From positions 1,312,001-1,376,000 of the forward strand of contig CBDAOB010000005.1 of assembly GCA_965197905.1 (NCBI GenBank): a stretch of DNA of 64,000 nucleotides, written 5' to 3'. The notes below the pieces were generated by a model, which did no database searches, was not told the DNA's origin, and was given only the letters and a program-made list of their open reading frames with translations. Position numbers and translations under genes: made by a program. Origin of the DNA: Candidatus Latescibacterota bacterium (GTDB lineage Bacteria > Latescibacterota > UBA2968 > UBA8231). Positions 35,620 through 57,241 of the stretch are shown here, one piece after another (position 1 is the stretch's first letter; each line of letters begins with the position of its first letter).

Positions 35620-35622
35620 AAC

Positions 35623-38234: not shown

Positions 38235-38570
38235 GTGAACCAGGACGGGCGGCCACGGCAGAGAATCGCGGGGATCGCTACCATCGAGCGCATCGAAGCG
38301 TGGATGGAAAACGCCGATTCAGCGTGCCCGCACCTGTTGTGGGTGCACTTCATTGACCCGCATTTCCCCGGACAACTGCCCGGAAGCAAGCCGATCTCAT
38401 TTGATGACGTGGTGGAGGATAGAGTGAACGCCTACCAGGAAGAGATAAACCATGATGCGGAGTTGGCATCTGTCTAGGATGAGCTGTGTCGTAATACTGT
38501 TGACAGGTGCTCTCGGGCAGGGTGCGGGCATACCAGGAAGAGATCGACGCAGCGCTGGGATTGGACTGAG
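38235..38570 (+). pseudogene. Sulfatase-like fragments
   Basis: LLWVHFIDPH and AYQEEI segments only. Confidence 0.4.
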
Positions 38571-38619
38571 GGCCTCGAATTCTTTGACACATTATTCATA
38601 AGAAGCAAGGAGAGCCAAC

Positions 38620-39779: not shown

Positions 39780-39874
39780 GACTCTAGCCGCCACGCCACC
39801 CTTTCCGTTCGCTCATTTAATCAGGAGCGTGGCTATAAGTAAACCAGTTGCTGACTTAGGGCGAGGAGGCAGAG

Positions 39875-40654
39875 ATGCGCATTGGCACCTACAACGTCTA
39901 TGGTTTTAGAGGGTACCCGAAAGAGGAGTCGGCGAAGAGAATCGGCCCTGCAGGCAGTGACGACAACGCCGCGCACTACACACGAGTGTTGGCCGAATTG
40001 TCGTGTGATATCCTGGGACTGCAAGAGGGTGTGTTTGCAGGTGACATGAAGAAGATTGCGCGCCCAATGCAATGCTACCTGGCGACGTTCCCGTCGCCGA
40101 CCGCTTGCCCAGGGCACGTGGTGTCACGCTATCCGATCCTCGAGTCGCGTGTATTCAGTCACTTCGATCCAACCGAATCGTTTCCGCCATTCAGCCGTAC
40201 CGCTGGTGCCGCCCTACTCGAGGTCGGCGAGGCTGATGCCACGCTCTGGTTCGTGGTCCTCCACCTATATCACAGGACCAGAGAAATGCGCGACCGTGAG
40301 GCAGATATCCTGCGCGACCGTCTGAACGATCTGCTTCAGACTACCGACAAAGCCGTAGTCCTTGGCGATTTCAACTGCGAGGTCGATGAGAGAGTTCATC
40401 AGCACTTACGGGAAATGGCGTTCGTCAACGCCATGGAGAGCGCGGGCGGCGGGCTCCAGGTTACCATAGACACCGTCGGTACCACCAACAGGCGTGCCAT
40501 TGACCACATATACGTCAGTCCAAGCCTCGCTCCACGTCTCAAACGCGCCGAGGTCGTCCGCAGCGACGGCTTTCGTCATGACGGTCCCCAGGTCGACGGT
40601 GTGTGGGTCCATTCGGACCACCTGCCGGTTGTCGCCGAACTCGATTGGCCGTGA
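39875..40654 (+). CDS. Endonuclease/exonuclease/phosphatase family protein
   Basis: MRIGTYNV, LGLQE, LGDFN, IDHIYV, SDHLPV. Confidence 0.92.
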   Translation: MRIGTYNVYGFRGYPKEESAKRIGPAGSDDNAAHYTRVLAELSCDILGLQEGVFAGDMKKIARPMQCYLATFPSPTACPGHVVSRYPILESRVFSHFDPTESFPPFSRTAGAALLEVGEADATLWFVVLHLYHRTREMRDREADILRDRLNDLLQTTDKAVVLGDFNCEVDERVHQHLREMAFVNAMESAGGGLQVTIDTVGTTNRRAIDHIYVSPSLAPRLKRAEVVRSDGFRHDGPQVDGVWVHSDHLPVVAELDWP

Positions 40655-40688
40655 GCGACGCTACCGCTACGGCCGCCTGGAAGTGGTA

Positions 40689-41140
40689 CTAATGTTTTTC
40701 TTGTGATACCACGGTCAACGGCAGCGTCACGTCGCTGCTCGAAAACTGTTCCAGGGTTTCCATCGCGTTCCGCAGGTCATCCGGCACGTCGGCGTAGCGC
40801 AACACCATCTCGTAGGAATCCCACCCACCCAGCTCCTTGATGCGGTCCAGTTCCACGCCGGCTCGCCGCAGCCGCGTCGCCCAGGTATGCCGCATCATGT
40901 GCAGCGTGACCAGTCGATCAAGCCCGAGCTTGGCATCTTCGGATGCTTTGTAGAGCGATTTTTTGATGTCTACTTCGGGGATCACTTTTGCCGATGGGTC
41001 ACTATCATCGGGCCACTGTATGAGCTTGTGGTTGTTTTTGCCGATACGGCGCTTGAAGGAGCGGCCTGGGCGCAGCGAGTCGATGCCATCAAGTGCTAGG
41101 AGTGTGGGGTTGGCAGTGCAGCGTCGGCAGGGCGCCGACG
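40689..41140 (-). pseudogene. Phage-type tyrosine integrase, C-terminal remnant
   Basis: LHMMRHTWATRL..GV..IKELGGW..MVLRYA; N-terminal part missing. Confidence 0.8.
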
Positions 41141-41301
41141 CTCAGTGTTTCGCAGACTAACTTGATGACCCGGTGTGTATATAGGGTAGATTGATGATCA
41201 GAGATGTGCCCAATTCTCAATCTTCCGCGTTCACGGACTCTCTCAGTTCCTTCCGTATTCACGCTGCGGCATCGACCTCCATTTACCCAATAGGTTTATC
41301 C

Positions 41302-41427
41302 GCCCAACGCAGCATTCACCTGCGGCCAGATTCGCGGTCTTCTTTGAGCAACCGATCCGATCTGTCGAACCATCGTGTTGGTCTGGTGAACTTGTGCAAG
41401 GCCCGTCAGGTGCAATGCATGTTATGC
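41302..41427 (-). repeat. attC site (126 bp)
   Basis: Minus strand GCATAAC..ATTGCACCTGACGG..CCGCAGGTGAAT..GTTGGGC, starting 1 nt after the kinase stop. Confidence 0.9.
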
Positions 41428-41428
41428 T

Positions 41429-43531
41429 TCATTTCTGTGTCCTCTGTCTATCTGTTGGCTCTTTGACATCCCCGCCGGCCATCACATTCAGGTCACTCAA
41501 CAGTCGTGGATACTCCTCCAGCGTTGCCGGCAGTTTCGCCATATCAAACATGCTGGCCTGGGTCGCCAGCTTCTCTGCCCACGTCGACAGTGGGACATAC
41601 CCAGACCTGTGTGCCTCTTCCTGCATCCGACTCGCGAACAGCTCGATGTCGTTGATCGTCAGTGTGGCACTGATCTCTGTCCACGTCTCCCTCTGCGATT
41701 CTACGAAACGAAGGAACTGGGGTAACTCAGCGCGTTCGGATACCGACAATTGGTCGGCAGACCAACTCGGTCCTGTCTCCGCGACTGTCGTCGCCATCTC
41801 GGCAGCTTGCTCGTGCGGCAGGAACTTCATCAGGGCAGCCACCAATCCGGCCCGGCTGACGGGCTTCGTGAGGAAGTCGTCACATATCTCCCGCAACTGT
41901 TCTTCCTCCTCCTTCATGGCCGAAGCTGTCACAGCAATAACAGGAACATGGGAAGATGCCGGGTCATCCTTCAGGTGCCGTGTCAATTTCATTCCGTCCA
42001 TCGCAGGCATCCGTAAATCCGTGAGGACTACGCTGGGAGCCTGGGCACGGACCGCATCGAGTGCCTCGTTCCCATCACCGGCCTCGACAACTTCGAACTC
42101 ATAATCGGAGAGATAGGTCTTAATCAGCAGCCGGTTATTTGGCACGTCGTCGACCACAAGAATCCTGGCCGGATCAAAGGATACCTCCGGTACGCTCTCG
42201 TCCGCACTGCAAGCGGCAACATCCGCCTCCGAAGCCACGGCGATTCCGTCGAGCACAATGGAGAAGGTGCTACCGACGCCCAACTGGCTGCTGAGAGTGA
42301 TGTCTCCCCCCATCATCTGGCACAAACGCTTCGAGATGGACAGCCCCAGCCCCGTGCCACCGAACTTTGCCGCGCTCTGGCCTTTGGTCTGTTCGAAGGC
42401 GCCAAAGACTTTACCCAGTTGATCGTCGGGGATTCCTATGCCGGTGTCGGTTACGTCGAAACGAAGATCGACCGCGTCATCACCCGAGGGTGATCCTGAG
42501 GCGATCAGTTTAACGTGTCCCTTGTCGGTGAACTTGATGGCATTGCCGATCAGATTGATCACGGACTGTCGCAGACGCAGCTCATCGAGCACAACACCAG
42601 CAGGGAAATCGTCGGTAACCTCAACGAGAAACTCGATCCCCTTCTCTTCGGCCTTCTGCACAAAGATCTGTGCCATATCCCGCGCGATCGCGGCCGCGTC
42701 ACACGGTCCGAACTCCAGTTCCAGTTTTCCGGCTTCCACCTTGGACAGATCGAGGATGTCGTTGATGAGTCCAAGAAGAGACTTACCGCTGGTTCTGATC
42801 GCATCGAGGAATTCTCGTTGCTGTCCCTCCCTTATGGAACTCGTAAGGATCTCCGAGAAACCGAGAATCGCGTTCATGGGTGTACGGATCTCGTGGGACA
42901 TGCTGGCGAGGAATACGCTCTTTGCCTGGTTCGCTTCTTCGGCAGCTGCTTTGGCTGTGGCCAGTTCATCCATCGTCTTCGTCAAGGCACCGATCAATTT
43001 CCCCAACGTGAACACTACAATGGTGCACAGAACCGCGAAGCCCAATACGGTCACGATCCATGCGAGGCTGGATCTGACATAGGTACTGGGTTCGACGACG
43101 AACGACATGTCACCCGCAACGACAAGGAAGGCGACGACGGCGATCGAAAGACCCCCCGTCACGGCGATAGCGATGCCGAGCCTCAGCCCGAAGAAGATCG
43201 TGGCAAGTATGGTGGTAAGGGCGATGGCACTGATGCCGACCGGGCCAAAGGAGGCCAGACCGCCGATGCCCAGAACGAGAAAGAGTGATGTCAGGAACAC
43301 GGTCTTGAGGGTGTGAGGCACCCGCTTGCGTAGGACAGCGATCGCTACAACGAACAGATAGGCGATCACATGCAGATACATGACTGGCTGCCAGCCGATC
43401 TCCGTCGACCGAGCCAGAGAAGCAACGACCGCAGGCAATGAAGAAACAGAAAGCACGATGTAGGCTACGTTGACGATCTTTTCCTGAATCGCCTGCAATC
43501 CACGATCACTCGGGATCATGCGGACCTCCAT
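41429..43531 (-). CDS. Hybrid sensor histidine kinase/response regulator (cassette)
   Basis: N-terminal TMs, FLASMSHEIRTP, NLIGNAIKFT, DTGIGI, GGTGLGL, receiver LVVDD..TDLRMP..KP. Confidence 0.95.
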   Translation of the reverse strand: MEVRMIPSDRGLQAIQEKIVNVAYIVLSVSSLPAVVASLARSTEIGWQPVMYLHVIAYLFVVAIAVLRKRVPHTLKTVFLTSLFLVLGIGGLASFGPVGISAIALTTILATIFFGLRLGIAIAVTGGLSIAVVAFLVVAGDMSFVVEPSTYVRSSLAWIVTVLGFAVLCTIVVFTLGKLIGALTKTMDELATAKAAAEEANQAKSVFLASMSHEIRTPMNAILGFSEILTSSIREGQQREFLDAIRTSGKSLLGLINDILDLSKVEAGKLELEFGPCDAAAIARDMAQIFVQKAEEKGIEFLVEVTDDFPAGVVLDELRLRQSVINLIGNAIKFTDKGHVKLIASGSPSGDDAVDLRFDVTDTGIGIPDDQLGKVFGAFEQTKGQSAAKFGGTGLGLSISKRLCQMMGGDITLSSQLGVGSTFSIVLDGIAVASEADVAACSADESVPEVSFDPARILVVDDVPNNRLLIKTYLSDYEFEVVEAGDGNEALDAVRAQAPSVVLTDLRMPAMDGMKLTRHLKDDPASSHVPVIAVTASAMKEEEEQLREICDDFLTKPVSRAGLVAALMKFLPHEQAAEMATTVAETGPSWSADQLSVSERAELPQFLRFVESQRETWTEISATLTINDIELFASRMQEEAHRSGYVPLSTWAEKLATQASMFDMAKLPATLEEYPRLLSDLNVMAGGDVKEPTDRQRTQK

Positions 43532-43722
43532 TCATCGATTAAAACGTGCAAGGCCCGCTCATTTGCCCATTCTTCCTCCCAATTGGCCCCAACACTGGCA
43601 GCCGGTGGGCGTATCCGACGTCAGGTACTGCTTCGAGCATGTCCACACCCTGATTGCTTTTCAGTGGTCGCTATGACCATTTCCGGTATCTGCATAGAGA
43701 CAGTAAGGCGGTGCCTGTGACC

Positions 43723-43848
43723 GCATAACACAGGGCTGACCTGCGGGCGGAGCTGGCGGCACTCAGTCACGCCAATCCAGCCCGGCGAATAGGCAATCCA
43801 ACTAGCTGGGCCAGCAGTGAAGTCCGTCAGGTCCAGCGCATGTTATAC
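43723..43848 (-). repeat. attC site (126 bp)
   Basis: Minus strand GTATAAC..CTGGACCTGACGG..CCGCAGGTCAG..GTTATGC; higA stop TAA lies inside the inverse core. Confidence 0.9.
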
Positions 43849-44136
43849 AGTGGTAACATCCACCTTCTTGACCTTCTTGAGATTTACGCTTCTACGTGCG
43901 TGCCAAAGATCGTACTGGTCCTGCATACTCAGCCAACTCTCGGGTGAACGACCTAAGCCCTTCGATAATCGCAGTGCCATCTCTGGTGACACGTTGCTCT
44001 GCCCGTTCAACAGGCGATTCAGTGTAGACGGCGATACGCCCAGGCTATTTGCAACCTTCCGTACACTAATGTCATAAGGGGTTAGGTAGATCTCTCGAAT
44101 AAACTCACCCGGATGCGGCGGATTGTGCATTCTCAT
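43843..44136 (-). CDS. higA: HigA family antitoxin (cassette)
   Basis: MHNPPHPGEFI, HTH, SPEMALRLSK, SPESWLSMQ..YDLW. Confidence 0.93.
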   Translation of the reverse strand: MRMHNPPHPGEFIREIYLTPYDISVRKVANSLGVSPSTLNRLLNGQSNVSPEMALRLSKGLGRSPESWLSMQDQYDLWHARRSVNLKKVKKVDVTTV

Positions 44137-44414
44137 CAGTGATAATCCTCGTAGTTGACTACGTAAGCATTGCCTTCGCGAAACTCGAACGTGAGGCGCC
44201 AATTTCCGCTCACAGTGATTGCCCAGAGGCCCTTGCGGGCTCCTCTAAGCCTATGGAGACGAAACCCTGGAATATCCATGTCATCAATCCGTGCAGCTGT
44301 ATCCAGCGCCACCAGTTGTAGTCGCAGACGCTTTCGATGAGCGGATTGAATCCCCGCCGCGTTCCCAGTTTCGTAGAAGCGTCGTAATCCCCTATGCCTA
44401 AAGGAGTTGATCAT
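44136..44414 (-). CDS. higB: HigB/RelE family toxin (cassette)
   Basis: MINSFRHRGL, PGFRLHRL, WAITVSGNWRLTFEF, YEDYH. Confidence 0.93.
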   Translation of the reverse strand: MINSFRHRGLRRFYETGNAAGIQSAHRKRLRLQLVALDTAARIDDMDIPGFRLHRLRGARKGLWAITVSGNWRLTFEFREGNAYVVNYEDYH

Positions 44415-44421
44415 TTCATGA

Positions 44422-44450
44422 AATATAGCATGTTGCGCATCGCGCTACAA
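44422..44450 (-). promoter_or_regulatory. Sigma-70-type promoter with palindromic operator for higBA
   Basis: TTGTAG-N17-TATATT; imperfect palindrome TGTTGCGC..GCGCTACA at 44431-44449; ATG about 8 nt downstream (likely leaderless). Confidence 0.65.
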
Positions 44451-44466
44451 GACTCCGCCCTCGCCC

Positions 44467-44593
44467 GTATAACGAAAGAATCACCTGCGGGGAGCGTCAC
44501 CGATCGCTCTTCCACTCGCTGATCCAACCCGGCGAAACAGCCACTCGGTCAAGTACCATTACAAGATGCCGTCAAGTAAATTCTCTGTTATAG
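44467..44593 (-). repeat. attC site (127 bp)
   Basis: Minus strand CTATAAC..ATTTACTTGACGG..CCGCAGGTGAT..GTTATAC. Confidence 0.85.
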
Positions 44594-44651
44594 GTAACTC
44601 TTTTGCTCAGTTTGTCCTCGCGTCCAGCATCACTGCGGAGGCCAAGCGTAT

Positions 44652-45209
44652 TTATAAGCCTTGGACAACCCGCTGTTCCCAGGGCCTCCTGATGAGCGTG
44701 TACCAAAGCCGATCTTCTGACCGTCGCTCTAGAAGGAAACCGCACTTTTCCATGACTCGCATGGATGTCACGTTGTCCGATTTACAGGAAGCTGAAAACG
44801 CCGCTATGTTTTTGCTCAGAAAAGCGGCCTCAATCATCGCCCTGACGGCCTCGGTTGCGTAACCGTTGCCCCAGAACTTTCTCCGCAGAAACCAACCACA
44901 GCCCCCATGTTGTGGACGTGTAATTGTGTACCCTACGTCACCAATCATCTCCTGCGTATCGTTTAGTACGACTGCGAAGAAATACCGAACCCGCGGTTCA
45001 GAATTCTGTTGGTCGATAGCATCCCGCAAGCTAGCTTCTGCCTCTGGACGGGTTCTAGGCAGCCAAGACACGTGCTTAGCCACATCAGGGTCAGTTTGCC
45101 AATCAACGTAGGAACCGATATCGTTGGCTGTGTGCTCGCGGATGTGGACTCGTTCGCCTATCATTGGCTCCGGATCGCGTTGCGAGCGCTCATTCTGTCG
45201 ATGTTTCAA
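44652..45209 (-). CDS. GNAT acetyltransferase, RimJ/RimL-like (cassette)
   Basis: GWFLRRKFWGNGYATEA, NVTSMRVMEKCGF; true start may be 45164. Confidence 0.9.
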   Translation of the reverse strand: MKHRQNERSQRDPEPMIGERVHIREHTANDIGSYVDWQTDPDVAKHVSWLPRTRPEAEASLRDAIDQQNSEPRVRYFFAVVLNDTQEMIGDVGYTITRPQHGGCGWFLRRKFWGNGYATEAVRAMIEAAFLSKNIAAFSASCKSDNVTSMRVMEKCGFLLERRSEDRLWYTLIRRPWEQRVVQGL

Positions 45210-45216
45210 TTCCTAC

Positions 45217-45343
45217 GTATAACACAGGCATCACCCGCGGGCGGCATAATTGACCAGCTCAGCAGACACGATTAATCCCGGCGAAATACTAATCCGGTAA
45301 AGATTCACCGGTAAGAGTCCGTCAGGTGCATGCCATGTTAGGC
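45217..45343 (-). repeat. attC site (127 bp)
   Basis: Minus strand GCCTAAC..ATGCACCTGACGG..CCGCGGGTGAT..GTTATAC. Confidence 0.9.
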
Positions 45344-45351
45344 TACAGGCT

Positions 45352-46595
45352 CTATCCTATCTTCTTAAGGAGATCGTTGAGCCCCGGATCAGAGTGCCGC
45401 ACCCGAAAGTGCTCCTGTCCCTCCGCGGGAACTGTCTCGATGACGACATCTCTCATTCCTCGCACTCCGTGGCCATCGCGGTAGACATCAGCAGAGTCAA
45501 ATGGCTGCTCCTTGACGATGAACGCGAGCCTGGTCAAATCCGCGGTTTGAAAATCGATGTACTCCGACTTCGCGTCGAGCCACTTGATCGGAAGACAGTC
45601 GTGACGATGTCCCTTCTCTATGACCAACCAGTCTCCCTCTGGCATCCCCGGAGCTGGAGGCACCGGCGATGAAGTCATCGAGTACAGAGACCGGACCTCC
45701 TTCACTTCAGGTCTCTGGGCGAGGATAGCCTTTGCCAGCGCGAAGTCATTACCAGATGCGTACAAGAACCTGCTGGAGCGTAACGTCTGGAGCTCATTAA
45801 GAGCCCTGCAGTAGTTCTCGTCGACAAGAAGAGGCGTGCCATCGTGGATACTCTGGTGTAGGCGGCACATGAAGGGATCTGACGGCGCCGGTCTCGGATG
45901 GGCGTCATCGATAGCCTCCGCCAAGATCTCTCGCACACTTGGGCAGTACAGGGCCAGACAGAGCCGCGGGGATATCGGGTAGTAGATCTCTGTTCCCGGG
46001 GCATCCAGGCCCAATCTCCCATATGGAAACGTATTGTGCATCACCACTGGGTTGTCCGAAACCCACAAGCTGGCTGACTCGAAATGAGGAGGACGGGATC
46101 CTTGCGCCGCATTATCTCGGCAAACCTGTCCAACTCGAAGAGCTGACCGAGGGAGATTCGCCGAGCGTCGGCGTCATCAATCACACGCGTCGGCTCGAAC
46201 TCAAGAGACTCCATCCACTCAGAGAGTTGCTTGGAGAACTCTATGGGCGAAGTTCTGATGATTCTAGTCCTAACCAGCTGGCACGCCAGGAGGACTGGGA
46301 GGTCTCGAAGGACATCTTCACTTACGCCGAGGAGTGTCCGGGTTTCGGTAAGTGCTCTGATTGCGGCGGCGAGTCGGCTGTCGATCTCCTGAAAGAGAAA
46401 TTCGTAGTTGATCTCCCGCTGTCCGATGATTACCCGATTGAAGTCGCGTTCAGCTGCCGCATCGCCGACGGCCACTTTGAACTGCTGGGCTGTCTTCTTG
46501 TCAAAGGCGAATACCTGATCCCCCCCGGGAACGAGGGCAAAGTTCCGGAGTACTGCCCGCGGAACGTAGTGGTGTTTTCTAGCCTCCTGAGGCAC
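45352..46595 (-). CDS. DUF4238 family protein (cassette; frameshift near 46070-46090)
   Basis: KHHYVPRAVLRNF N-terminus and WVSDNPV..IYYPISPRLCL in adjacent frames. Confidence 0.75.
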
Positions 46596-46608
46596 TATCT
46601 CTCACGTC

Positions 46609-46728
46609 GCCTAACACAGTGATGAGCCGCGCAGACTCACCGCAAGCCCAGAAACACAGAATGGGCAGGTGAACGCGCTCAAGATCTCAAGATCACTGTC
46701 CGATCGTCGGCTCGATCACATGTTATGC
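46609..46728 (-). repeat. attC site (120 bp)
   Basis: Minus strand GCATAAC..ATCGAGCCGACG..CGCGGCTCAT..GTTAGGC. Confidence 0.88.
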
Positions 46729-46856
46729 ATTTCCAATGGTACAATCCGTTTCAGGAAATTTTCACTTACCGATCAGTATCCGGACACAACGAGTAGCTGT
46801 GGCCACCTATGCTGCTGCATCGGCCATACCTTCACCAGGGGCCGGACGCGCGGCCG

Positions 46857-48923
46857 CTACCTTCCGAGCACTCCTTCCAGCGTCGGCACCTGACCTGCGC
46901 CTACCGGCACCGTGATGCTCGAGCCTTCGAAGTCATCCCCGATCGGCTCATATCGACCGCCGAGGTGCTCGGCCAGGAAGATCTCCGTCACCGCGTTGAA
47001 AGACAAGCGGTTCTCGGGCCTTGCGAAGCCGTGGCCCTCATCCGGGTAGATGACGTACGTAACTGGAATTCCTTTCTCCTGCATGGCGTCGACGATCTGG
47101 TCTGATTCGCTCTGCTTGACGCGCGGATCATTCGCTCCCTGACCGATCAGCAGGGGCTTCTGTATTCTCTCGACATAGGTCAGTGGCGAACGGGCCCTGA
47201 GGAACTCCCGCCCCTCCTCGGTGCGATGGTCCCCTACGCGAGTAGTGAAAAGGTTGATCATCGGCTCCCAGTAGGGAGGGATCGTCTCGAGGAGCGTCCG
47301 AAGATTGGACGGCCCCACGATATCAACGCCGCAGGCGAAGACGTCGGGTGTGAAGGTGACACCCACTAGGGTGGCGTACCCTCCGTAACTTCCCCCCATG
47401 ATCGCGATTCGCTCTACGTCAGCGATCTTCTCATCGATCAACCACTGCACGGCGTCGATCAGGTCGTCGTGCATCTTTCCCGCCCACTCGAGGTTGCTGG
47501 CGTTGATGAATTGTTTACCGAGGCCCGTGGAGCCGCGGTAGTTGACACTCAGCACCGCGTAACCGCGGCTGGCAAGCCACTGATGACGCGAGTGATAGCC
47601 CCATGAGTCTCGTCCCCAAGGGCCTCCGTGGACGAAGAGGACGGTGGGTAGTGGCGTCTGGGAGCGGCCGTCACGCTCCGGATCGGTCCAGGACGGGAGC
47701 GTCAGATAGCTGACCAGATCGAGTCCGTCGCGGGATTTGATGACGACCGGGTGCATGCTCGAGAGTGCCACCCCGACCAGTTCCTCCCGGTTAGTGAATA
47801 GAAACACCGCCTGCCGCTTGGCGCGATCGTAGAGGAAATAGCGAACTGGACCATCGTCGACGACGAACGAGATCGTCCAGGCATCGTCGTCGAGCGACCG
47901 GCTCGTCACTTTCATGTCTCCGTCAGCTAGGGTCTCCAGATAGTCGATATCGCTACGAATGGACTCGTCGAGGAGCGTCCACTCGATGCGTGTATAGTTG
48001 CTCGAAGCGGCCTGGATCGTCTTTTCTGTCGGATGTATCATGATGCCGTCTATATCTGCCCGGGGATCGGTGAAGACCACTTCCTTGTCCCCGGTCCGTA
48101 GATCGACCGCCGTCAGCGCGGCCGTGTTCCGTCCGCGGCTGTCGATCATGTAGAGCACCTGCCCACTCTTGTCGAAGGCGACCGGCCACGTCGTGAGCAC
48201 ATCCTCCATCGGAATCTTGTCGAACGAAACCCATCCGTCGCTGCCATCCGGCGTGAAGATCTCGTTGCCTCCCTCTGGCGTCATCTGCAGGGCATAGCGG
48301 ATGTTGTAGTCATCGTCGGTCTGGAAGCCGAGGAAGCGATCGTTCTGCTGGATCAGCTCCATGTCGCCGGTCAAGATGTTCAGGCGGTAGAGATCATGAA
48401 AACGCGGATTGCGTTTGTTCAATCCGATCAAGATCTCGTCGGCAAACTTGTGACTGACCTCCTGGATCTGAGCCGTCGGCCTCATCTTGTCGCCGCTCGG
48501 GAGGGTCATAGTCTCGCCATCTGGCCCGATGATCTCCTCGAACGGGGTCAGGTTTCGGTCTACCTTCGACTTGACATCGACTGCGTGCACCTGCCAGTTC
48601 TCATCCCCTCCCAGATCCTGCAAATAGAGGATGTGGTCGTTGGTGTGCGCCCAGAAGTATGTGCGAATGCCCCGCAATGTATCCTTCGTCACTGAGACGG
48701 CTTCCCCTGGATTGTTGGCATTTGCCACCCATACGTTCATCACACCGTCCAGCGGCGCCAGATAGCTGACCCTGATGCCGTCCGGGCTGATCTTCAGCGA
48801 AGTCCGGTCCGGGTTACCGAAGAGAATCTGGCGGCTGATCAGCGGCGTGCTCTCGTCAGCTGTGGCTCCACGCAGAGCGGTCCCAAGGACGAAGAGAAGG
48901 AAAGTGGAGATAGCTATGCGCAT
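46857..48923 (-). CDS. S9 family peptidase (acylaminoacyl peptidase-like), secreted (cassette)
   Basis: Signal peptide, VHGGPW, GGSYGG, GANDPRV, DEGHG; GGAGG RBS. Confidence 0.95.
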
Positions 48924-49045
48924 TGCATCCTCCGGTGGAAAAGAGTGTATGAGCCCGAGCACTCGGCTGACCTGCTGTGCACGGAGTCTCCCTGTTGTGG
49001 ATATGGCCCCAGGCGCTATCTGAAGTCGGCCTCCGTAATCTCAAC

Positions 49046-49170
49046 GGATAACGCGGGCATGACCTGAGGCCAGGGCCGTGTACCCCTGAACAGCATCCAA
49101 TGGCCCGGCAAATCACTATCGGGGCGCCCGTTCTACCGCTAGAGTCCATCAGGTCAATGCCTTGTTATAC
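49046..49170 (-). repeat. attC site (125 bp)
   Basis: Minus strand GTATAAC..ATTGACCTGATGG..CCTCAGGTCAT..GTTATCC. Confidence 0.88.
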
Positions 49171-49308
49171 GAATCCTGAGCTAATTTATCCGTCCGAAGT
49201 ACTGTTCAGGTACGGTCTAGCGATGAACACAAGTCAATCAAGACCCGTTCAACCAAGACAGAAATGTCCAAAACCAAGTGACTTCCAGTATAGGGCACCA
49301 TTCATCCG

Positions 49309-50271
49309 TCAGTTCGCAATGGATCTTTGAATCTCGCCCTCTATGATGTCACGGTGATTGTAGAACCAATCCATGTGTTCCAAGACAGGGACTTCGTCTT
49401 TGATCTCCCTCTCGTCAGGAAAGCAGGAGGCCAACATACATAACCAGAGATGATCTCGCTCAAGTGAAGAGAATGGGTTCGCCAAGTGGTATTCCCCCAG
49501 GAATCTCCCAAAGTGAGAAAGCCAATATCGGCGTTGGTCATCTTGATCGCCTCCGATTGGGAGTCCATTGCGCCCTTTGTATCGGACCATCGACGTCAGC
49601 GCTGTGACAACATCCAATAGTCTCTGTCCGTGGCAAATGTGATCGCAATCGATGAACCCTCGGAACTGATCGCCTACCAATCTGACATTGCCTCTGTGAA
49701 CGTCCAGAAAGATGACCTGAACGGGCAGTTGATCCGAAAGACGTTGCAATGGGCTTTCAAGCAACTGAAGAGTCCTCTCAACCTTAGACAGATCACCATC
49801 CGACAGGTACGGCAACCATTGCGGCGCATACTCCTCAAACACCATCGTGTGCATGTCTTCTTTCCATGTATTTACCGGTCCGTCAAACCCACGTAGGCAA
49901 GCGTGTAACCTGGCGTAGGCTCTCCCGAGGCTTCGGTAGGCTCCTGCTGACTCTGGTGCATAGAAGTCAGTCTCATCCCCTTCGATGTAGGGCATCAGAA
50001 CGAATACGCTCTCGCTAGATTGTGTGTAGAAGGAACCTTCAATTGTTGCCAGAAGATACGCGATGGGAAGCCCGGCCTCGTGCACATGTCGGGTCACCCT
50101 GAACTGCGCTTCAGTTCGCGCCAGCACCTCTGGCGTACCGACGTTCTTGAGAACGTAATGCTCTCCGTCACGGGTGTGAACGTGATAAATATCCGGCACT
50201 CCATCCAGCTCGACTGAAGAGGCTTCTAACGCCCATGCAGACAGGGATTCCTCAACCTCTTTTGTCACCAT
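49309..50271 (-). CDS. APH/homoserine-kinase-like phosphotransferase (cassette)
   Basis: YVLK, FVLMPYIEG, ARLH, FLDVHRGNV, FIDCD. Confidence 0.8.
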   Translation of the reverse strand: MVTKEVEESLSAWALEASSVELDGVPDIYHVHTRDGEHYVLKNVGTPEVLARTEAQFRVTRHVHEAGLPIAYLLATIEGSFYTQSSESVFVLMPYIEGDETDFYAPESAGAYRSLGRAYARLHACLRGFDGPVNTWKEDMHTMVFEEYAPQWLPYLSDGDLSKVERTLQLLESPLQRLSDQLPVQVIFLDVHRGNVRLVGDQFRGFIDCDHICHGQRLLDVVTALTSMVRYKGRNGLPIGGDQDDQRRYWLSHFGRFLGEYHLANPFSSLERDHLWLCMLASCFPDEREIKDEVPVLEHMDWFYNHRDIIEGEIQRSIAN

Positions 50272-50305
50272 CTTTCACCTGACCAGCGAATCCTTCGCAT
50301 TTGGC

Positions 50306-50425
50306 GTATAACGCAGTGTTCAGCTGCGGACAGTCGCACCGATTGCCTCGGTCATCCGATGGGAAAGGCGAAACACCGTCAACTCAGAGTCACCGATCCT
50401 CCGCCAGCTGCAACACATGTTATCG
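50306..50425 (-). repeat. attC site (120 bp)
   Basis: Minus strand CGATAAC..TTGCAGCTGGCGG..CCGCAGCTGAA..GTTATAC. Confidence 0.88.
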
Positions 50426-50478
50426 AATCGACCAGCCCTTCTTGTCATCGCCGGGCCATTGGTTCGGCGATGACAGGC

Positions 50479-51378
50479 CTACTTGAGCAGTGCCCGGAGA
50501 CGAACCGTAGCTGCCTTGTTCAGTCCTTTGCCCCGCTTGGTCTGATGTAGCGGTTTGGGTCTAGAGCCATCCTCATCATCAAAATCGTACTCTTTGGCCA
50601 ACTCACCGACAAACAGGATCTGGCCGCTCTTCTTTTTCACCTTGGCATCTGATGCAAGAGCTACAACAGCGCGGCCAACATACCACGGTGACTCTGTGTC
50701 TGTCATGGGTGAGTTGAACCGCATGACCCCCTCGGTGCGCACATAGCCGGGCCACAGGGACACACAACTCACGTCGCTGCTGCGCAGGTCTCGAGCCATG
50801 TCATTCGTCATTTTGTCCACACACAGCTTGGCCGACTGGTAGGCTACACCACCTTGACCGTGGCTGAAACTGTAGAAGGAAATGTTCACGATCAGTCCGT
50901 CTTGGGCTCTCAGCATCAAGGGAACGGCCAGAGAAGTCGCGATGTAACAAGAACGAACTCCCACCTCGAAGACCTCATCCCACTCGCGAACCGGCCTCTC
51001 CCAGAATCGGCCTTGGTAGAACTCGTTTCGGTGAAGGGGCTCATATCCGCCCCACGCATTGTTGACCATGACATCAAGTCGGCCGTACTCGCGGTCGATC
51101 CGATCAAAAACCCTTCGGACTTGGGTGTCACGACGATGGTCGCATCTGCAAACGATGGCCTTGCCGCCGAGAGCCTCGATCTCAGAGGCTGTCGACTGCA
51201 GCGAGCCCCGGAGCGCGACGGGGCCGCTTCCTTCCTTCAACGTTCGTCCCGTCAGATAGACCACGGCTCCAGCTTGGCCGAGAGCCAAGGCGATGCCACG
51301 ACCTACGCCTCTACTGGCGCCGGTTACCAGAGCAATCATACGAGATAGAGATGGGTCCGAGTCGGTCAACATTGCCAC
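50479..51378 (-). CDS. SDR family oxidoreductase, DHRS1-like (cassette)
   Basis: LVTGASRGVGRG, NNAWGG, YQSAK, WPGYVRTE. Confidence 0.92.
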   Translation of the reverse strand: MAMLTDSDPSLSRMIALVTGASRGVGRGIALALGQAGAVVYLTGRTLKEGSGPVALRGSLQSTASEIEALGGKAIVCRCDHRRDTQVRRVFDRIDREYGRLDVMVNNAWGGYEPLHRNEFYQGRFWERPVREWDEVFEVGVRSCYIATSLAVPLMLRAQDGLIVNISFYSFSHGQGGVAYQSAKLCVDKMTNDMARDLRSSDVSCVSLWPGYVRTEGVMRFNSPMTDTESPWYVGRAVVALASDAKVKKKSGQILFVGELAKEYDFDDEDGSRPKPLHQTKRGKGLNKAATVRLRALLK

Positions 51379-51414
51379 GATCTTGATTCGTCAGGTCTTC
51401 CTACGCGTTCTCAT

Positions 51415-51536
51415 CGATAACGCAAAGATGAGCCGCGACCAGACTCGCCGTTTGCGTTGATTAACCTAATCAGATTTGCGAATCACAGTCCACCGAGATC
51501 CACCGTTGGAATCGTCGGTTCCATCTTATGTTATCA
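51415..51536 (-). repeat. attC site (122 bp)
   Basis: Minus strand TGATAAC..ATGGAACCGACG..CGCGGCTCAT..GTTATCG. Confidence 0.88.
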
Positions 51537-51565
51537 CTCACGATCCGATTTTCGGGCATCTCTGA

Positions 51566-52360
51566 CTAACCAGAGATATCACGCTTGTCGTCAGAAAACT
51601 TGAATGCCTTGCCTCCAACGAGTTGGTCGCTGGTGATAGTTGAGCACCAGTGTGTCTCGATGTGCTGCACAACCAAATCTGTACCTTCAAAGTGATCCAT
51701 CTCATATCTATGGAAGGAATCAGTCAAGTCACGGCAGAGTAGTGGTTTCCTACCCAAGTAGACAAGCTGGCGAATTCCAAAGGGACGACCTAGTACACAG
51801 GCGTTTGTATGGACGCCCATGACGATGACATCCTCAATGTCTCGGTGTTCAAGCATATTGAATACCTCTTGGCCGTTATCGCTGATTGCGTCCTCCTCAG
51901 CAATCTTGATCGTATCAATCTGACGGGTCCAGGGGTAATGGTCGGCTGGACAGGCGGGTTCGGATAAGTCGCATGAGCACTCCCCTGGATCAGATGGGAA
52001 GGGCGGCTCCCGTTCCTGATTCCAGTATCTCCCAGTGAACTCCATCGCAGCACTTGCATGCGGTGTCTGCTGGGCCTGCGTGCGTTGTGGTGTATCGGCA
52101 TAAAATGCCATGCAATCACTGGGAGCGTGGATGATCAACACTCCTTCCTCTCGAATGCTATTTATCACCTCGTTCATGCGCGGCGCCATTTCGTCTACAC
52201 GCTTGGCGGCCGAGGTACACCAATGTGTGTCCCACATATCGCAGACGATCGCAGCAGTCTTGCCTGGTTTCCACTCGACCTCATCTATGACAACCTGAGA
52301 GGCTGTGCTATCTTCCTCCAATTGGAGACGATAACGCTTGCGTAAGCTATACCCATTCAT
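51566..52360 (-). CDS. Isochorismatase/nicotinamidase-like hydrolase (cassette)
   Basis: IVCDMWDTHWC, IIHAPS, MGVHTNACVLGRPFG. Confidence 0.85.
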   Translation of the reverse strand: MNGYSLRKRYRLQLEEDSTASQVVIDEVEWKPGKTAAIVCDMWDTHWCTSAAKRVDEMAPRMNEVINSIREEGVLIIHAPSDCMAFYADTPQRTQAQQTPHASAAMEFTGRYWNQEREPPFPSDPGECSCDLSEPACPADHYPWTRQIDTIKIAEEDAISDNGQEVFNMLEHRDIEDVIVMGVHTNACVLGRPFGIRQLVYLGRKPLLCRDLTDSFHRYEMDHFEGTDLVVQHIETHWCSTITSDQLVGGKAFKFSDDKRDISG

Positions 52361-52552
52361 TTGAGGAGATCCCCTTGTGATCCAGTGTCTCTAAGTTGGA
52401 TGTGAGACGTCTCCGGTTCAGCACTCAGGTTCATTGTTTTTGATGGTTCGGGGAAACTGCGAATTGAGATGATGGGAGAGCGTCGTCCCGGCACCTCGCT
52501 TTGGTTCCTTGAAGGATGTTCAGTTTCACCAGTCCTGGAGCTCATTCTTGTG

Positions 52553-52625
52553 TGATAACGCCACGCATCAGCGGCGCACAGCGAGCGCAACGAGTAGTGC
52601 GTCCGACTGCATGCGCTTGTTAGAC
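52553..52625 (-). repeat. attC site (73 bp, classical short type)
   Basis: Minus strand GTCTAAC AAGCGCATGCAGTCGGAC..GCCGCTGATGCGTGGC GTTATCA. Confidence 0.92.
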
Positions 52626-52631
52626 TGTATA

Positions 52632-53654
52632 TCAACCTCCAGCGGTACTCAGCATCGCCCTGGTCTCGTCCGTCAGCCGTATGTGCGGCGGGGACATGCC
52701 CGGCAGCAACACACTCGGGTCGCTCTCCACATGCGCCAGTGGATGGAGCTTTGTGAGCGCCGGGTTCGCAGAGTACTCTTTTTCCTCCCGGGGCTCGTTA
52801 AACCAGCACGGCGAAAACTCCAGAATGCGTTTCTGCCGCTCAGTGAGTTCGGGGTCGTTGGTGTCGTACGCGACGTCGCCGTGATGCATGCCAAAAGGAA
52901 CATACTTGTAGAAGAGCGTGCGACGCTCGCCGCTCGCCGCCCACGGAATTGTACCATGTTTGAGCTTCTCAGTGAACAGAATGCAGTCCCCAGCCTTGGC
53001 CTCGACCCGGTGCACCGGCACATCTTCACCCCAGTTTGGCAGCTGCGATGTCCACTCCGTGTCGCACCAGTTCGGCTTCCAGTCGCCGTCAATGTCCAGC
53101 AGTTTCTGCTCGTTGGCCGGCTTGTGTGTGCCCACAACACACCCAAAGCCCCCGTCATCTGGTCCGACGGTCTTGAGTTCATACACACAGGTGATATGAA
53201 AGCTGCCCGGGCCTCCGTGGAGCGTCCCGCCTTTGTCCTCGCCGTCTGTCGGTTTCCGGCCAGGCTTGTAGTGTATATTGTCGTGATCTAGCCGGAACAA
53301 GGTGCGAAGCTCTGCCGGCATGTGTGCAGGGGCATGGCCCCACGACGGGTCACCGAGAATCTCTTCCAAGATGGGCAGCATGGTCTCGTTGTCGATCAGG
53401 TCCCTGTAGGCTTTGCTCCAGAGCCTTCTTCCCACGTACGTGTTGCCATGCCGATCCGTTGTCTGGTGAGTGTCGCGCCCCCGGATGGAGAAGCGGATCT
53501 TTTTATCGGTGCCGCCCTTAGACCGGATCTCCTCCCGCTCAAGGATGTGCTGATCATATACTTCATTGAGCTCGTCGAGCTGCTGTTGATTGAGCACGTC
53601 GGGCACGACGACATAGCCTTGTCGTGCGAATGTGTCGCGCATCGCGTCGTCCAT
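52632..53654 (-). CDS. Phytanoyl-CoA dioxygenase (PhyH) family protein (cassette)
   Basis: FARQGYVVVPDVL, LHGG, GGFGCVVGTH, AGDCILFTE..HGT, ERRTLFYKY. Confidence 0.85.
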   Translation of the reverse strand: MDDAMRDTFARQGYVVVPDVLNQQQLDELNEVYDQHILEREEIRSKGGTDKKIRFSIRGRDTHQTTDRHGNTYVGRRLWSKAYRDLIDNETMLPILEEILGDPSWGHAPAHMPAELRTLFRLDHDNIHYKPGRKPTDGEDKGGTLHGGPGSFHITCVYELKTVGPDDGGFGCVVGTHKPANEQKLLDIDGDWKPNWCDTEWTSQLPNWGEDVPVHRVEAKAGDCILFTEKLKHGTIPWAASGERRTLFYKYVPFGMHHGDVAYDTNDPELTERQKRILEFSPCWFNEPREEKEYSANPALTKLHPLAHVESDPSVLLPGMSPPHIRLTDETRAMLSTAGG

Positions 53655-53683
53655 CTTCTAATCTCCTCGACGTGTAAGAAGTA

Positions 53684-53855
53684 AGTACGTGTTCATAAGT
53701 TTGGGTTGATTTTAAGTGATTTGAAAATCGATGCGATATTGCTGACCGTAATGTCTGAGGATGTGCTGTATCGAATCGAGTAAGGCTTTGAAATCCGTGT
53801 ACGCCGCAAAAGGCAACCACTTATACTTTATCCGCCGCCACAGAATCTCAATCTT
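53684..53855 (-). mobile_element. IS630-family transposase C-terminal remnant
   Basis: IEILWRRIKYKWLPFAAY..YRIDF tail; TA-bounded end near 53684; locally AT-rich. Confidence 0.7.
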
Positions 53856-54010
53856 CTTAGCTTGGGCGGATTGGTTGCTTGTGGTCCCACTGGTAATTTC
53901 GGGAAGCATTCGTGTGATTCTTGGGCATGCTTGGGGTTATGTCCTTTGGGTACCCACGTAACAATTGTTGGTTGCAGAGTTCTGCCTCCAATCTTAATGT
54001 TGCATGCAAG

Positions 54011-54040
54011 CAGTCTAACAATACAGTACGTGGACGTCCT
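54011..54040 (-). other. Putative attI-like recombination point at the array head
   Basis: GTTAGACTG on minus strand is complementary to the inverse core CAGTCTAAC of the first attC, but no matching attC arms are present. Confidence 0.6.
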
Positions 54041-54369
54041 CATTATCTGGCCTTACTTTTCGCCTGCCCCCACTGCGCCGACACCTTCGCCACACCAACT
54101 AAACAGCGTTAACTCCTGCAACGCAAACGAAGTTCGGCGAGGTGAGCCCTGCCAAGCTGCCCACCTCGTCGGCCCCTTTCGCGGCATATCTGATTATTAC
54201 GTGGCAAATTGGGACATTCACATTTAGTCGACGGCGTACACCCTACACCGTCGTTGCCTCCAAATATCAAGGCGATCCGGAAAGCACGATAGCGGCATAA
54301 TGGGGGCGGCACCGCTGCCATCAGGGCTCTCGATGTTACTCACGTCCCGTAGTGCACAGGTGAAGTGTA

Positions 54370-54519
54370 CCTGGGCCGCCGTGAACCCAACATCTAGAGC
54401 CCGTCAGGAACCGAAATCCACGCCACACTAGGCGCCGCGCCGCTTCGGCCGCGTCGCGAGCCGCCAAACGAACCGATACATCGCCCAGTTCACGCACCCG
54501 CTGGCTTGCCGCGACTACC
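54370..54519. repeat. 150-bp dispersed repeat, copy 2
   Basis: Direct repeat of 32458-32607. Confidence 0.9.
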
Positions 54520-54660
54520 AATGGCACGAGGTGAAATTGAGCTTTTGAGATGGCGATTGACAACATTAAGGGGTGGTCGTATAGTCGGTGCGATCCGAGA
54601 ATAATGCGTTTAAGAAAGCACTGAATTCCATCTGGGAAATGTCTTTTGGAGGTAACGCAG

Positions 54661-56775
54661 ATGTCGCAACAGAAGCGTCTTGAACACCCCGAGACACCGT
54701 TTCCCGTGGGGGTGGAATACTATAGGGCACCGATCCCCAAGCAGGAGTGCTGGGACGAGGATCTTGCCAGGCTGCGTGCGGCGGGTTTTGGCGTTATACG
54801 CAGCGCTTCCTACTGGAACTGGATGGAGCCTCGACCAGGCCAATACGAGCTTGACGATTTCGATAGGCTGTTCGACTTGGCGAAGAAACACGGATTGTAT
54901 GTATGGTTGGACATCATGCTAAACACTCATGGTGCATGTCCGGAATGGTTGATGAGGGAGTATCCTGACATGCGTATTGTAAACTATCGGGGAGAACCGG
55001 CCCATTCTTATGCTGGTGGGGCAATCCCTCAGGGCGGCATGACGCATTGCTACGACCATCCAGCATGGCGGGAGTACGGGGGAGCTTTGCTCCGGCACAT
55101 TGTGCATCGGTACAAGGATCGGCCCAATCTGCTCATCTGGGGGCTGTGGGATGGCATCCAGCCAGCATCGGCCAAGAACTCGGAGCATTACCCTTGCTAC
55201 TGCGATTACACCATCGCCAAATATAAGGCCTGGCTGAGGGAGCGGTTCACGCTAGATGAGCTAAATGCACGGTTGCTCCGTCGCTACCGCCGCTGGGAGG
55301 ATGTGGAGCCGCCGCGATCCAACCATGCCATAGTAGAGATGCTGCCCTACCGACAGTTCCACTACGAAAATCTGGTAGAGCAGCTCAAGTGGATGGTTAA
55401 GGAGGTGGAGAGTATCGACCCTCATCATGAGATGCGGGCACATTCAACCTCGAGACCCCGGCCCTTTGATGAGCAATGCGCCCGCCACATAGACAGTTGG
55501 GGCATGTCCATGAGTTCCAATGACCTGCTTGCCTCTGAAGACCCTTATAAGATTGCGGAGCGGGTCTTTGCTTTCGATTGGTCGCGCAGCGTGGGGCGCA
55601 ACGGGCGCTGGTGGATCGAGGAGATCTACGCCGGCATGAGTCCCGCCGGAGTGGGCTGGAAGACCAAGCAGTCCGACCCTCGTGAGCTGACCACTTTGCT
55701 TTGGATGTCCCTGGCCGGTGGGGCGGCGGGTGCCATGTTCTGGCAGTACCGGCCCGAATACCTCAGCTTCGAGTCGCCGGGCTTTAACCTGGTGGCCCTG
55801 GACGGTGAGCCAACGCCTCGCTTTGAGGGTGTGGCCCATGCAATCCAGCAGATCAAGGGCCTGAAGGACCACTTGCCCCTGGAGTGCCCTAAGGCAGAGG
55901 TGGGCATTGTTTACCACCCCCAGTCACAGGAGTTGTTTGGCTTCGACGACCAGTGGGGATGGGATGGCGTTAAACGCTATCTGGCCGACTTGCGCGGGGT
56001 GTACCGTACCTTGTGGACCCATGGTATACCTGCTGACGTGGTGACACCTCAGATGGACTGGTCGGGCTACCGGCTGCTGTTCCTACCCAATGTGGCATTG
56101 ATGACAGAGGAGGTGCAGCAACGGATTATGCGTACGCTGAAGGATAGCCCTGAGACCCATCTGGTTGCGGAGGGTAGCTTTGGCATGTACTCCGGCGATG
56201 GACAGTCCAGCTACCACCCGCCCGAAGGGTTTGCACAGCACTTTGGCGTGCGTGTGGCGGACGTCAACCGCGTGACCGAACTTGACATCCAGCAAGGGCA
56301 GAACACGATGGAGACCCCCTACGGCACAGTCACCATTACGACACCCTGTGGATACGCGGTCCTTGAGCCGAGAGGTGGAACCAAGGCCATTGCATCCCTG
56401 GGTACCGACACCGTGGCGGTGCGTACGGCGGACGGCCGTTTCACCTGTTATGGGTTGACCTTCTCCGCGGGATTTGGGGATGTGGGGCTGCCCAAGCTGG
56501 TGCTAGGCCAGGCTAAAGAGTTTGGTATTCAGCCACCCGTGATTGTAGAGGGAGACAGAGTGGTGCCGGTGGTGAGACGCTCTCAGCAGGGTGGCTGGTT
56601 ACTATTCTTGTTCAACATCGAGGACAAAAAGGCTCGGGTGACACTCCGTCCACAGTGGAAGACGAAGAAGGCGCAAGAGTTGCTCAAGGGCTCCACACTC
56701 TCTCTCGCTGATGGTACTTTCAGTCTTACGGTAGAGTCCTGGAGTGTGAGCGTGATTCACTGTGCCGTGGGATGA
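54661..56775 (+). CDS. GH42-like beta-galactosidase family protein
   Basis: GVEYY, WNWMEPRPGQY, CPEWL, CYDHP, FWQYRP, trimerisation domain; GGAGGT RBS. Confidence 0.88.
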   Translation: MSQQKRLEHPETPFPVGVEYYRAPIPKQECWDEDLARLRAAGFGVIRSASYWNWMEPRPGQYELDDFDRLFDLAKKHGLYVWLDIMLNTHGACPEWLMREYPDMRIVNYRGEPAHSYAGGAIPQGGMTHCYDHPAWREYGGALLRHIVHRYKDRPNLLIWGLWDGIQPASAKNSEHYPCYCDYTIAKYKAWLRERFTLDELNARLLRRYRRWEDVEPPRSNHAIVEMLPYRQFHYENLVEQLKWMVKEVESIDPHHEMRAHSTSRPRPFDEQCARHIDSWGMSMSSNDLLASEDPYKIAERVFAFDWSRSVGRNGRWWIEEIYAGMSPAGVGWKTKQSDPRELTTLLWMSLAGGAAGAMFWQYRPEYLSFESPGFNLVALDGEPTPRFEGVAHAIQQIKGLKDHLPLECPKAEVGIVYHPQSQELFGFDDQWGWDGVKRYLADLRGVYRTLWTHGIPADVVTPQMDWSGYRLLFLPNVALMTEEVQQRIMRTLKDSPETHLVAEGSFGMYSGDGQSSYHPPEGFAQHFGVRVADVNRVTELDIQQGQNTMETPYGTVTITTPCGYAVLEPRGGTKAIASLGTDTVAVRTADGRFTCYGLTFSAGFGDVGLPKLVLGQAKEFGIQPPVIVEGDRVVPVVRRSQQGGWLLFLFNIEDKKARVTLRPQWKTKKAQELLKGSTLSLADGTFSLTVESWSVSVIHCAVG

Positions 56776-56789
56776 CGACATACAGGGCA

Positions 56790-57040
56790 GGATCAGACGC
56801 CCGCAGCTACCTATCGCCGCTCCTGGGCCACATTGTTGGCACGGGTTTTTCGCCTCGAGGTGACAAGGTGTCCGGAATGCGGCGGCCCGATGAGGATCAT
56901 CGCCGCCTTCACCGACCCAACATCGATCCGCCGCTATCTGCACGGCATGGGCCTGCCAGCGCGGGCGCCGCCGATCGCACCCGCACGACCCCAACCGCAG
57001 ACTGAATTCGACTACGCCTGATCCTCTGCGGGCGAGGTAT
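56790..57040 (+). mobile_element. IS91-like transposase C-terminal remnant
   Basis: WATLLARVF..CPECGGPMRIIA..DP..IRRYL..GLPARAPPIAPARP. Confidence 0.75.
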
Positions 57041-57241
57041 GTCTACAGGCTGCGCAAAAGCGGCGTGCAGGCGCCCGAAGTGGAAGCGATAGCCTACAAG
57101 GAATGAGTAGCAGGCGAAATTTTCCTCCGGGGACTGGGAAGTAACAAAATCATTCAGAGTGTGCTTGCAGGCAGAGGCTGGTAAGGCTTTTCTTTTATTG
57201 TTTTGTAGAACGCCCAAATGGGCCGCAGAGGAGGTGTATGG

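Follow-up and report, generated by a model that had tools for sequence, protein, structure and literature searches.

A chromosomal integron array with a putative orphan attI site and a cassette resembling a Poribacteria-type locus in a Candidatus Latescibacterota genome

Introduction

Where do integron cassettes come from, and can an array still take them up once its own integrase gene is gone? Both questions are raised by a run of nine gene cassettes at positions 41302–54019 of a 64,000-nucleotide stretch of a Candidatus Latescibacterota genome (hereafter the window; G000:C5:1312001-1376000, where G000 is a 6.69 Mb genome in five contigs, C5 being one of them). In integrons, the integrase IntI excises cassettes between the folded bottom strands of attC sites and inserts the resulting circles at an attI site (parts of PMC3053210 and PMC4889954). 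Passages of PMC4889954 and PMC5371416 describe the origin of new cassettes as unknown, and a passage of 10.1101/2024.07.02.601719 calls it a long-standing question. Here we find that the array is very probably an attC cluster without an integrase (CALIN), specifically a decapitated chromosomal integron. Taken as a whole, the locus is likely a chromosomal integron array from which the cis intI has been lost and in which a degenerate attI remains. The nine-cassette array itself belongs to a known kind; the orphan attI and cassette 1 set it apart. Cassette 1, a single case with one junction unverified by independent contigs, looks like a recent DNA-level capture or cargo swap.

The host organism is probably not a member of the Poribacteria, to judge by the labels of its RecA neighbors: the named ones, at 81–85%, are labelled Gemmatimonadota, and none is labelled Poribacteria. 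Many marine genomes labelled Gemmatimonadota belong to Ca. Latescibacterota. A search of titles and abstract openings, outside of which lay most subscription journals and supplementary integron tables, returned no paper on Latescibacter or Poribacteria integrons, and a phylum list within PMC8618304 includes Gemmatimonadota and names neither Latescibacterota nor Poribacteria.

Results

Nine Folding attC Sites Follow the Cassette Genes

Every recognized gene between 41302 and 54019 lies on the minus strand, and a site follows each unit. The initial annotation had placed nine attC-type sites here, to be given up should they not fold with extra-helical bases; in our analysis all nine bottom strands fold as integron hairpins, with AAC and GTT paired in the R box and two extra-helical bases. 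Eight sites are long (120–127 bp) and attC1 is 73 bp. AAC and GTT are present in nine of nine, and the 73–127 bp spans fall within the 57–141 bp allowed for RYYYAAC/GTTRRRY sites, the outer positions of these boxes deviating from the consensus in several. The fold test was positive at 9/9 cassette ends and at 0/54 control open reading frame (ORF) ends in the window; the scan that located the nine sites, run across 41000–54600, returned one extra candidate (53811–53942), which was unconvincing. No Rfam family matched inside the array.

The core at the start of a cassette is the exact complement of the inverse core at its end in seven of nine cassettes, with one mismatch each in the S9 and GNAT cassettes, just as first annotated. 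Exact pairing occurs in 5 of 72 non-matching cassette pairs, and seven exact pairs were reached in 6 of 100,000 permutations. In an alignment of the eight long sites with one site of the array on contig C3 (see below), 93.4% of cells pair, compared with 23–38% in slid controls; double-sided changes occur at eight pairs, and the covariation score was reached by 0/500 shuffles, the consensus structure having been derived from those same sequences. Weighing against the assignment are weak folding energies (z from −0.47 to −2.83, only three of nine below −2), two L-arm mismatches in the GNAT site (attC7), and the failure of covariance model R1, made from the long sites, to detect the 73-bp attC1. 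Two custom geometry scorers were rejected: one missed attC1 and attC7 genome-wide, and the other gave attC1 only 5.5. As this second scorer was non-discriminating, the fold test was used instead.

Counting from the R box, the eight long sites have their first extra-helical base at a distance of 7, with 8 on the other arm. This 7/8 geometry recurs in 29 of 41 scorable sites of relatives, a set from which 5 of 46 sites with non-canonical ends were dropped and whose selection by model R1 favors 7/8. Of 119 pattern matches listed for other taxa, 67 had no right arm and were excluded; among the 52 arm-matched sites that remain, the 7/8 form accounts for 3 and a left-hand count of 8 for 44. Since those three share it, we rejected 7/8 as a unique form; the spacing, one base shorter, is a lineage signature as judged by sequence comparison. 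Like the T-N6-G and T-N6-C attC sites described in part of Larouche and Roy (2011, PMC3053210), the present sites have two extra-helical bases six apart, mostly T and C, whereas here the first of them lies 7 from the R box in 8/9 sites. Several integrases recombine the T-N6-C spacing, according to the same part of that source.

The Array Lacks an Adjoining Integrase and an Intact IntI Lies on Another Contig

A CALIN is defined as at least two attC sites with no intI nearby (Cury et al. 2016, within PMC4889954). The nine sites share a strand and are spaced by less than 4 kb, the largest cassette being 2,436 bp; the only intI above cut-off is on contig C3, and the array is more than 1.3 Mb from both C5 ends. 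No intI adjoins the array, as one would in a complete integron; the attI expected at the head of such an integron is putatively represented by a degenerate site. As the initial annotation had held, a profile search found no intact integrase within the window, and a tyrosine-recombinase remnant in the flank was rejected as IntI on its TIGR02249 score (Table 1). The annotation had left the choice between a CALIN and a decapitated chromosomal integron; the array agrees with the CALIN definition, and of the two descriptions the second is the better fit, given the putative attI-family site at the array's head.

The genome search for intI that had been proposed with the annotation yielded an intact IntI on C3 (TIGR02249, 368.6 bits against a cut-off of 265), the only gene in G000 above the cut-off. 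Its translation contains the catalytic residues R-K-H-R-H-Y, and the gene is linked to a divergent cassette array by a 310-bp spacer. The model built from the long sites matches the C3 array and a few other places in G000 and, among 30 relatives in which 114 candidates per genome were scored, it matches G002 (21 sites), G015 (7), G014 (2), and G001 (1). IntI exceeds the cut-off in 3 of the 30. In the same-genus genome G002 the intI locus is syntenic and the sequences part immediately after GTT, which thereby defines attI. A G002 array 2 Mb from intI has ten ordered segments (85–98% identity) in common with the intI-linked G000 array, and array detachment therefore occurs in the genus. The genes flanking the window's array are found in G002 at 97–99% identity, scrambled, and none of the nine cassette genes is there; shared gene order in relatives, which would have spoken for an ordinary gene cluster in the annotation's own terms, was thus not seen.

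The start of the truncated tenth cassette stands behind a different attC in the C3 array and behind a third attC in G002, and in G000 other sequence follows that third attC on contig C4. We compared the array with contigs from runs X1, X2, X5, and X6 (the source sample may be X1). Long stretches of it recur in contigs from two studies; none among the contigs listed has a junction skipping a single cassette, and contigs drop rare variants. X1 and X2 contigs that cover the DUF4238 gene show no gap at its frame split. No RNA dataset among the matches listed carries array sequence.

Like CALINs (parts of PMC4889954 and of Neron et al., 10.1101/2022.02.28.482270), the array is a one-strand attC cluster with no intI nearby and IntI elsewhere; it differs in its nine sites, against a mean near 5–6, and in retaining attI, which IntegronFinder seeks in classes 1–3 only. 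It shares with the sedentary chromosomal integron (Loot et al. 2017, PMC5371416, in part) long related attC sites, a toxin-antitoxin cassette, and a syntenic intI locus, here in two genomes. In contrast to that system, the sites are 50–65% rather than about 80% alike, several detached arrays and solo attI copies occur per genome, and the bottom strand is probably on the lagging-strand template, a minority orientation.

A Putative Degenerate attI Site at the Head of the Array

Aligned without gaps, the 22 bases preceding 54019, a position predicted in advance, agree with the C3 attI at 13/22, a match reached by 17 of 78,774 GTTR sites in the genome. None of 500 shuffles scored as high as the real sequence in alignment with the G002 solo attI region. 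A degenerate attI pattern finds six places in 3 of 168 genomes and its reversed control none. A new site among these, in G012, joins a window-type left half to a C3-type right half, with a gene and an attC after it; G002 has two solo attI copies. An X6 contig from another study shares 54015–54378 and differs beyond, which fits a different cassette at the same crossover.

Several points weigh against this identification. The match to the C3 attI is partial. Because the window, C3, and G002 sites served to build the pattern, their three matches are circular, and likeness over the whole spacer is non-significant against G012 (209/500) and the second G002 solo site (94/500). The X6 evidence is a single contig of depth 2.1 whose other 770 bases are unread. 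A scan of the spacer for a sigma-70 cassette promoter (Pc) gave no match, the scan overall being at chance level. On balance, the resemblance makes it likely that the site at 54019 is a degenerate attI-family copy of the C3 integron's attI, and we treat it as putative. Separately, C4:474446 (minus strand) is an attI-like site (16/22) heading a single cassette whose attC lies at C4:473710–473838.

Beyond the spacer lies the end of an ISCR/IS91-like element. Such an end is joined to a transposase tail at C5:670148–670477 and in X1, X2, and X6, and four copies terminate at one identical point. The window holds this end and a separate transposase tail (56779–57018, 80 residues) that matches ISCR clade Ia with an E value of 6e-9, far below the cut-off, and it has no intact transposase between terIS and oriIS as an ISCR/IS91 element would.

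Cassette 1 Resembles a Non-Cassette Poribacteria-Type Locus

The PhyH protein of cassette 1 belongs to a cluster of 733 members. Five further proteins or pairs from the array were found in the protein collection, in clusters of 1–5; the translations for GNAT and the kinase are absent from it. Its gene is up to 98% identical in DNA to non-cassette copies. At L266, a locus labelled Ca. Poribacteria, a 1,239-bp segment that reaches from 53858 through the final base of the stop codon is 95.6% identical; past it the window has six non-donor bases and then the inverse core. Identity stops at the PhyH stop codon in L265, L266, L268–270, and L281. Upstream of the gene, 200 of 204 bases are the same as in L266, where the frame matches the IS630 model NF033545 (E 3e-15). 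The IS630 sequence extends further upstream in five Poribacteria loci, and its tail is inserted between the PhyH gene and the promoter-like sequence of IS-less copies. No other IS630 copy of the cassette 1 type was found in G000, and it is the presence of this remnant that gives the probable PhyH transfer its direction. The leader in front has no real match in 167 same-phylum genomes, in 176 genomes around the Poribacteria record, or in the genome collection, and a search with 40 residues of it returned only repeat proteins.

In the tree, the window's PhyH falls in a 100/99 clade of 16 rows whose nine named members are all Poribacteria. Among 116 PhyH copies with enough downstream DNA (112 loci), the fold test flagged three, a rate near background; by eye, two of these look like the beginning of a transposase gene and the third is without the arm pattern, so that none is convincing as attC. 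Model R1 gave no match on 50 PhyH loci, which carries little weight as R1 misses attC1, and no intI matched in the six closest donor-type genomes. A donor-like PhyH copy is present in X1 and X5 at higher depth, and contigs in the same two runs bridge the 3′ junction between stop codon and attC. At L266 3030–3070 and in related loci, the sequence that the PhyH stop codon overlaps looks like the T-arm and CCA end of a tRNA; ARAGORN finds no tRNA there.

Other observations weigh against this picture. The 5′ junction (53855/53856) is present in the G000 assembly alone and is unbridged among the contigs listed; the coding part is nearer to IS-less metagenome copies (L354, 98%) than to IS-bearing L266; and the window's PhyH has 17 private changes, with no exact donor found. 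From the closeness to IS-less copies and the private changes it follows that the piece is either a mosaic or derived from an unsampled donor. In addition, for the remaining cassette genes apart from the kinase, a search of the 167 same-phylum genomes that scored two candidates per genome gave no counterpart above about 74%. Overall, these comparisons suggest that cassette 1 was probably captured from a non-cassette Poribacteria-type locus.

Cassette genes with attC-free relatives outside integrons have been described, as here, in parts of Boucher et al. (2006, PMC1382264) and Kieffer et al. (10.1101/2024.07.02.601719). Those pairs share 62–95% protein identity and their direction is unclear, whereas the present pair shares 96–98% DNA identity, non-coding DNA included, and both junctions can be placed. 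Among the papers listed in searches on cassette genesis, none showed a case with mapped DNA junctions.

Table 1. Features of the array and its borders (window coordinates)
Feature	Position	Strand	Remarks
ISCR/IS91-like element, downstream end, without transposase	54349..54522	+	~330 bp from crossover, where intI would begin
attI-like site and upstream spacer (putative)	54013..54348	-	crossover G|TT at 54019/54018
Cassette 1 leader	53856..54018	-	163 bp; may hold start of former cargo gene
IS630 transposase tail and element end	53682..53855	-	174 bp; shorter than Poribacteria copies
Cassette 1 gene, PhyH-family dioxygenase	52632..53654	-	Pfam PF05721; 733-member 90% cluster
attC1	52553..52625	-	73 bp; 8/9 spacing, differs from other eight
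Cassette 2 gene, isochorismatase-like	51566..52360	-	PF00857 26.6 bits, slightly below cut-off; singleton cluster
attC2	51415..51536	-	folding bottom strand, covariation
Cassette 3 gene, short-chain dehydrogenase	50479..51372	-	PF00106; singleton cluster
attC3	50306..50425	-	fold, covariation; ~80% identity to G002 and G014 sites
Cassette 4 gene, APH-family phosphotransferase	49309..50271	-	best NCBIfam match homoserine kinase, below cut-off
attC4	49046..49170	-	fold, covariation
Cassette 5 gene, S9 peptidase	46857..48923	-	PF00326
attC5	46609..46728	-	fold, covariation
Cassette 6 gene, DUF4238	45352..46595	-	two Pfam halves; two frames, break near 46050
attC6	45217..45343	-	fold, covariation
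Cassette 7 gene, GNAT acetyltransferase (uncertain start)	44652..45164	-	PF13302
attC7	44467..44593	-	degenerate L arm
Cassette 8, higB-higA toxin-antitoxin pair	43843..44414	-	PF05015; TIGR02607 above cut-off
attC8	43723..43848	-	fold; 72% identity to one site of intI-linked C3 array
Cassette 9 gene, MASE11 hybrid histidine kinase	41429..43531	-	Pfam; cassette 2.4 kb
attC9	41302..41427	-	fold, covariation
Tenth cassette stub, truncated	41264..41308	-	first 45 bp; start recurs in C3 array and G002
Tyrosine-recombinase C-terminal remnant, flank	40689..41093	-	PF00589; TIGR02249 20.8 bits vs cut-off 265

Discussion

A Model for the Array and for Cassette 1

In the model that we favor, cassettes would have entered as circles at G|TT, and a rearrangement at the ISCR-like end would have removed intI. 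The C3 IntI may still be able to act in trans, by attC × attC excision and by insertion at either attI, so that the retained attI may go on receiving cassettes. Toxin-antitoxin pairs of the higBA type oppose loss, and the pair in cassette 8 may penalize loss of the array. GC skew suggests that the bottom strand is on the lagging-strand template, a placement that favors excision (PMC5371416, in part).

For cassette 1, chromosomal DNA of a co-occurring bacterium would have been joined between leader and attC. Because leader and attC form one continuous piece with perfectly complementary cores in the circular form, the simplest route would be cargo replacement, in which the cargo of an older cassette is exchanged and both its ends are kept. 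The product would stand in the first array position, the place of the latest insertion. We offer this cargo swap as a tentative and rather doubtful proposal for the route, with direct capture and an RNA route as alternatives. A wider account falls just on the doubtful side of an even chance: cassette genesis by DNA, in which about 1.2 kb of another phylum's chromosome, with one cut within an IS remnant and the other precisely at a stop codon, came to lie between the two ends of an attC unit and was inserted at the orphan attI in trans, one IntI serving several solo-attI arrays with shorter attC in the genus.

A cassette/chromosome pair at 96–98% DNA identity with both junctions placed constrains models of cassette genesis: its upstream IS DNA would not readily come from an mRNA route, and it stops at the stop codon. 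The pair suggests screening for further cassette/chromosome pairs, and the solo attI sites suggest that some CALINs may still take up cassettes.

Alternative Explanations

One alternative is that the ISCR-like end moved attI and array as one rolling-circle unit, from 54522 to about 41264, which would account for the absence of intI as well as for the truncation of the tenth cassette. ISCR elements mobilize adjacent DNA (10.1101/2025.01.22.634252, in part), the end points away from the array and has a fixed terminal base in four copies, and an X1 contig links such an end to half an attC and the tenth-cassette start (short side, 21 bases). However, no transposase lies between end and array, G002 offers no empty site with its flanks scrambled, and the identity of the end as an origin is itself conjectural; we consider this unlikely.

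A second alternative concerns only cassette 1, which might have been made de novo through RNA or a group II intron instead of a DNA cargo swap. G000 has group II introns bearing a reverse transcriptase (RT), and short ORF-less introns lie within attC-like sites on contig C2. A model for such a link between group IIC introns and attC is reportedly owed to Leon and Roy (2009). It is described in part of PMC7923331. Against it, the piece carries the 174-bp IS remnant and breaks off at the stop codon, short of the hairpin that lies downstream in the donor; the inverse core is preceded by six foreign bases, and 163 bp of non-donor leader stand in front. Nor is there an intron in the nine sites, and the junction lies six bases upstream of R′′ instead of at a group IIC-attC position. 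This makes an RNA origin decidedly improbable compared with joining of DNA.

The array might also have formed at a secondary (attG) site and never have had intI or attI here. IntI inserts at short GWT sites (10.1101/2022.09.11.507474, in part), the X6 contig could be an empty site, and no intI remnant lies near the array. The 13/22 attI match, however, stood where it was predicted, the G012 site, window-like in its left half and C3-like in its right, heads a cassette, and the spacer length agrees with the 310 bp of the C3 integron, leaving the attG account with very little probability.

We assign as small a chance to the view that the PhyH link runs in reverse, chromosomal copies being former cassettes, or that the assembly is a chimera of two organisms. 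De-recruitment of cassettes is described in part of PMC1382264, and the more abundant donor-like copy in the same runs would suit an artefact; yet the three flagged copies among 116 are about background and not attC-like on inspection, the window's PhyH has 17 private changes, and two samples contain the 3′ junction. That the repeats are terminators or REP-like elements rather than recombination sites, to which several weak folding z-scores might point, is negligible given the fixed extra-helical bases, strand bias, core pairing, and exchange of neighbors at G|TT.

Additional Observations

The flanks (33840–40659 and 54672–63856) occur in G002 as 1–3 kb modules at 97–99%, compared with 87–93% in neighboring syntenic blocks, and ISCR-like ends are found among the scrambled modules, possibly a second gene-shuffling system. 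On one side the flank includes tandem GH42 beta-galactosidase genes (54646–59360), 86% alike, the second split over two frames; on the other lies a short REP-like palindrome (41083–41160), of which the genome has at least three similar copies.

A second array at C2:10700–37700 (L010) comprises about 12 attC-like sites of another family (75–93 bp) and sits behind a truncated intI-like gene oriented as the cassettes are. A 749-base ORF-less group II intron has 14 starts in G000, 12 of them full length (C2:7475–34699 and other contigs; L010 5984–6674). Five of these copies lie within C2 attC-like sites, where they occupy the cassette (top) strand and so run counter to the orientation usual for IIC-attC. 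The window itself contains an RT-bearing group II intron at 22760–24559, and in G002 the intI-linked array is interrupted by a copy from that intron family.

In G015 (L125–L129) the seven attC matches fall in four clusters with no intI above the cut-off. A 324-residue recombinase in that genome matches the IntI model at both ends and not in the middle, and several relatives have similar genes. G000 also carries two full recA genes, at C4:53737 and C4:457102.

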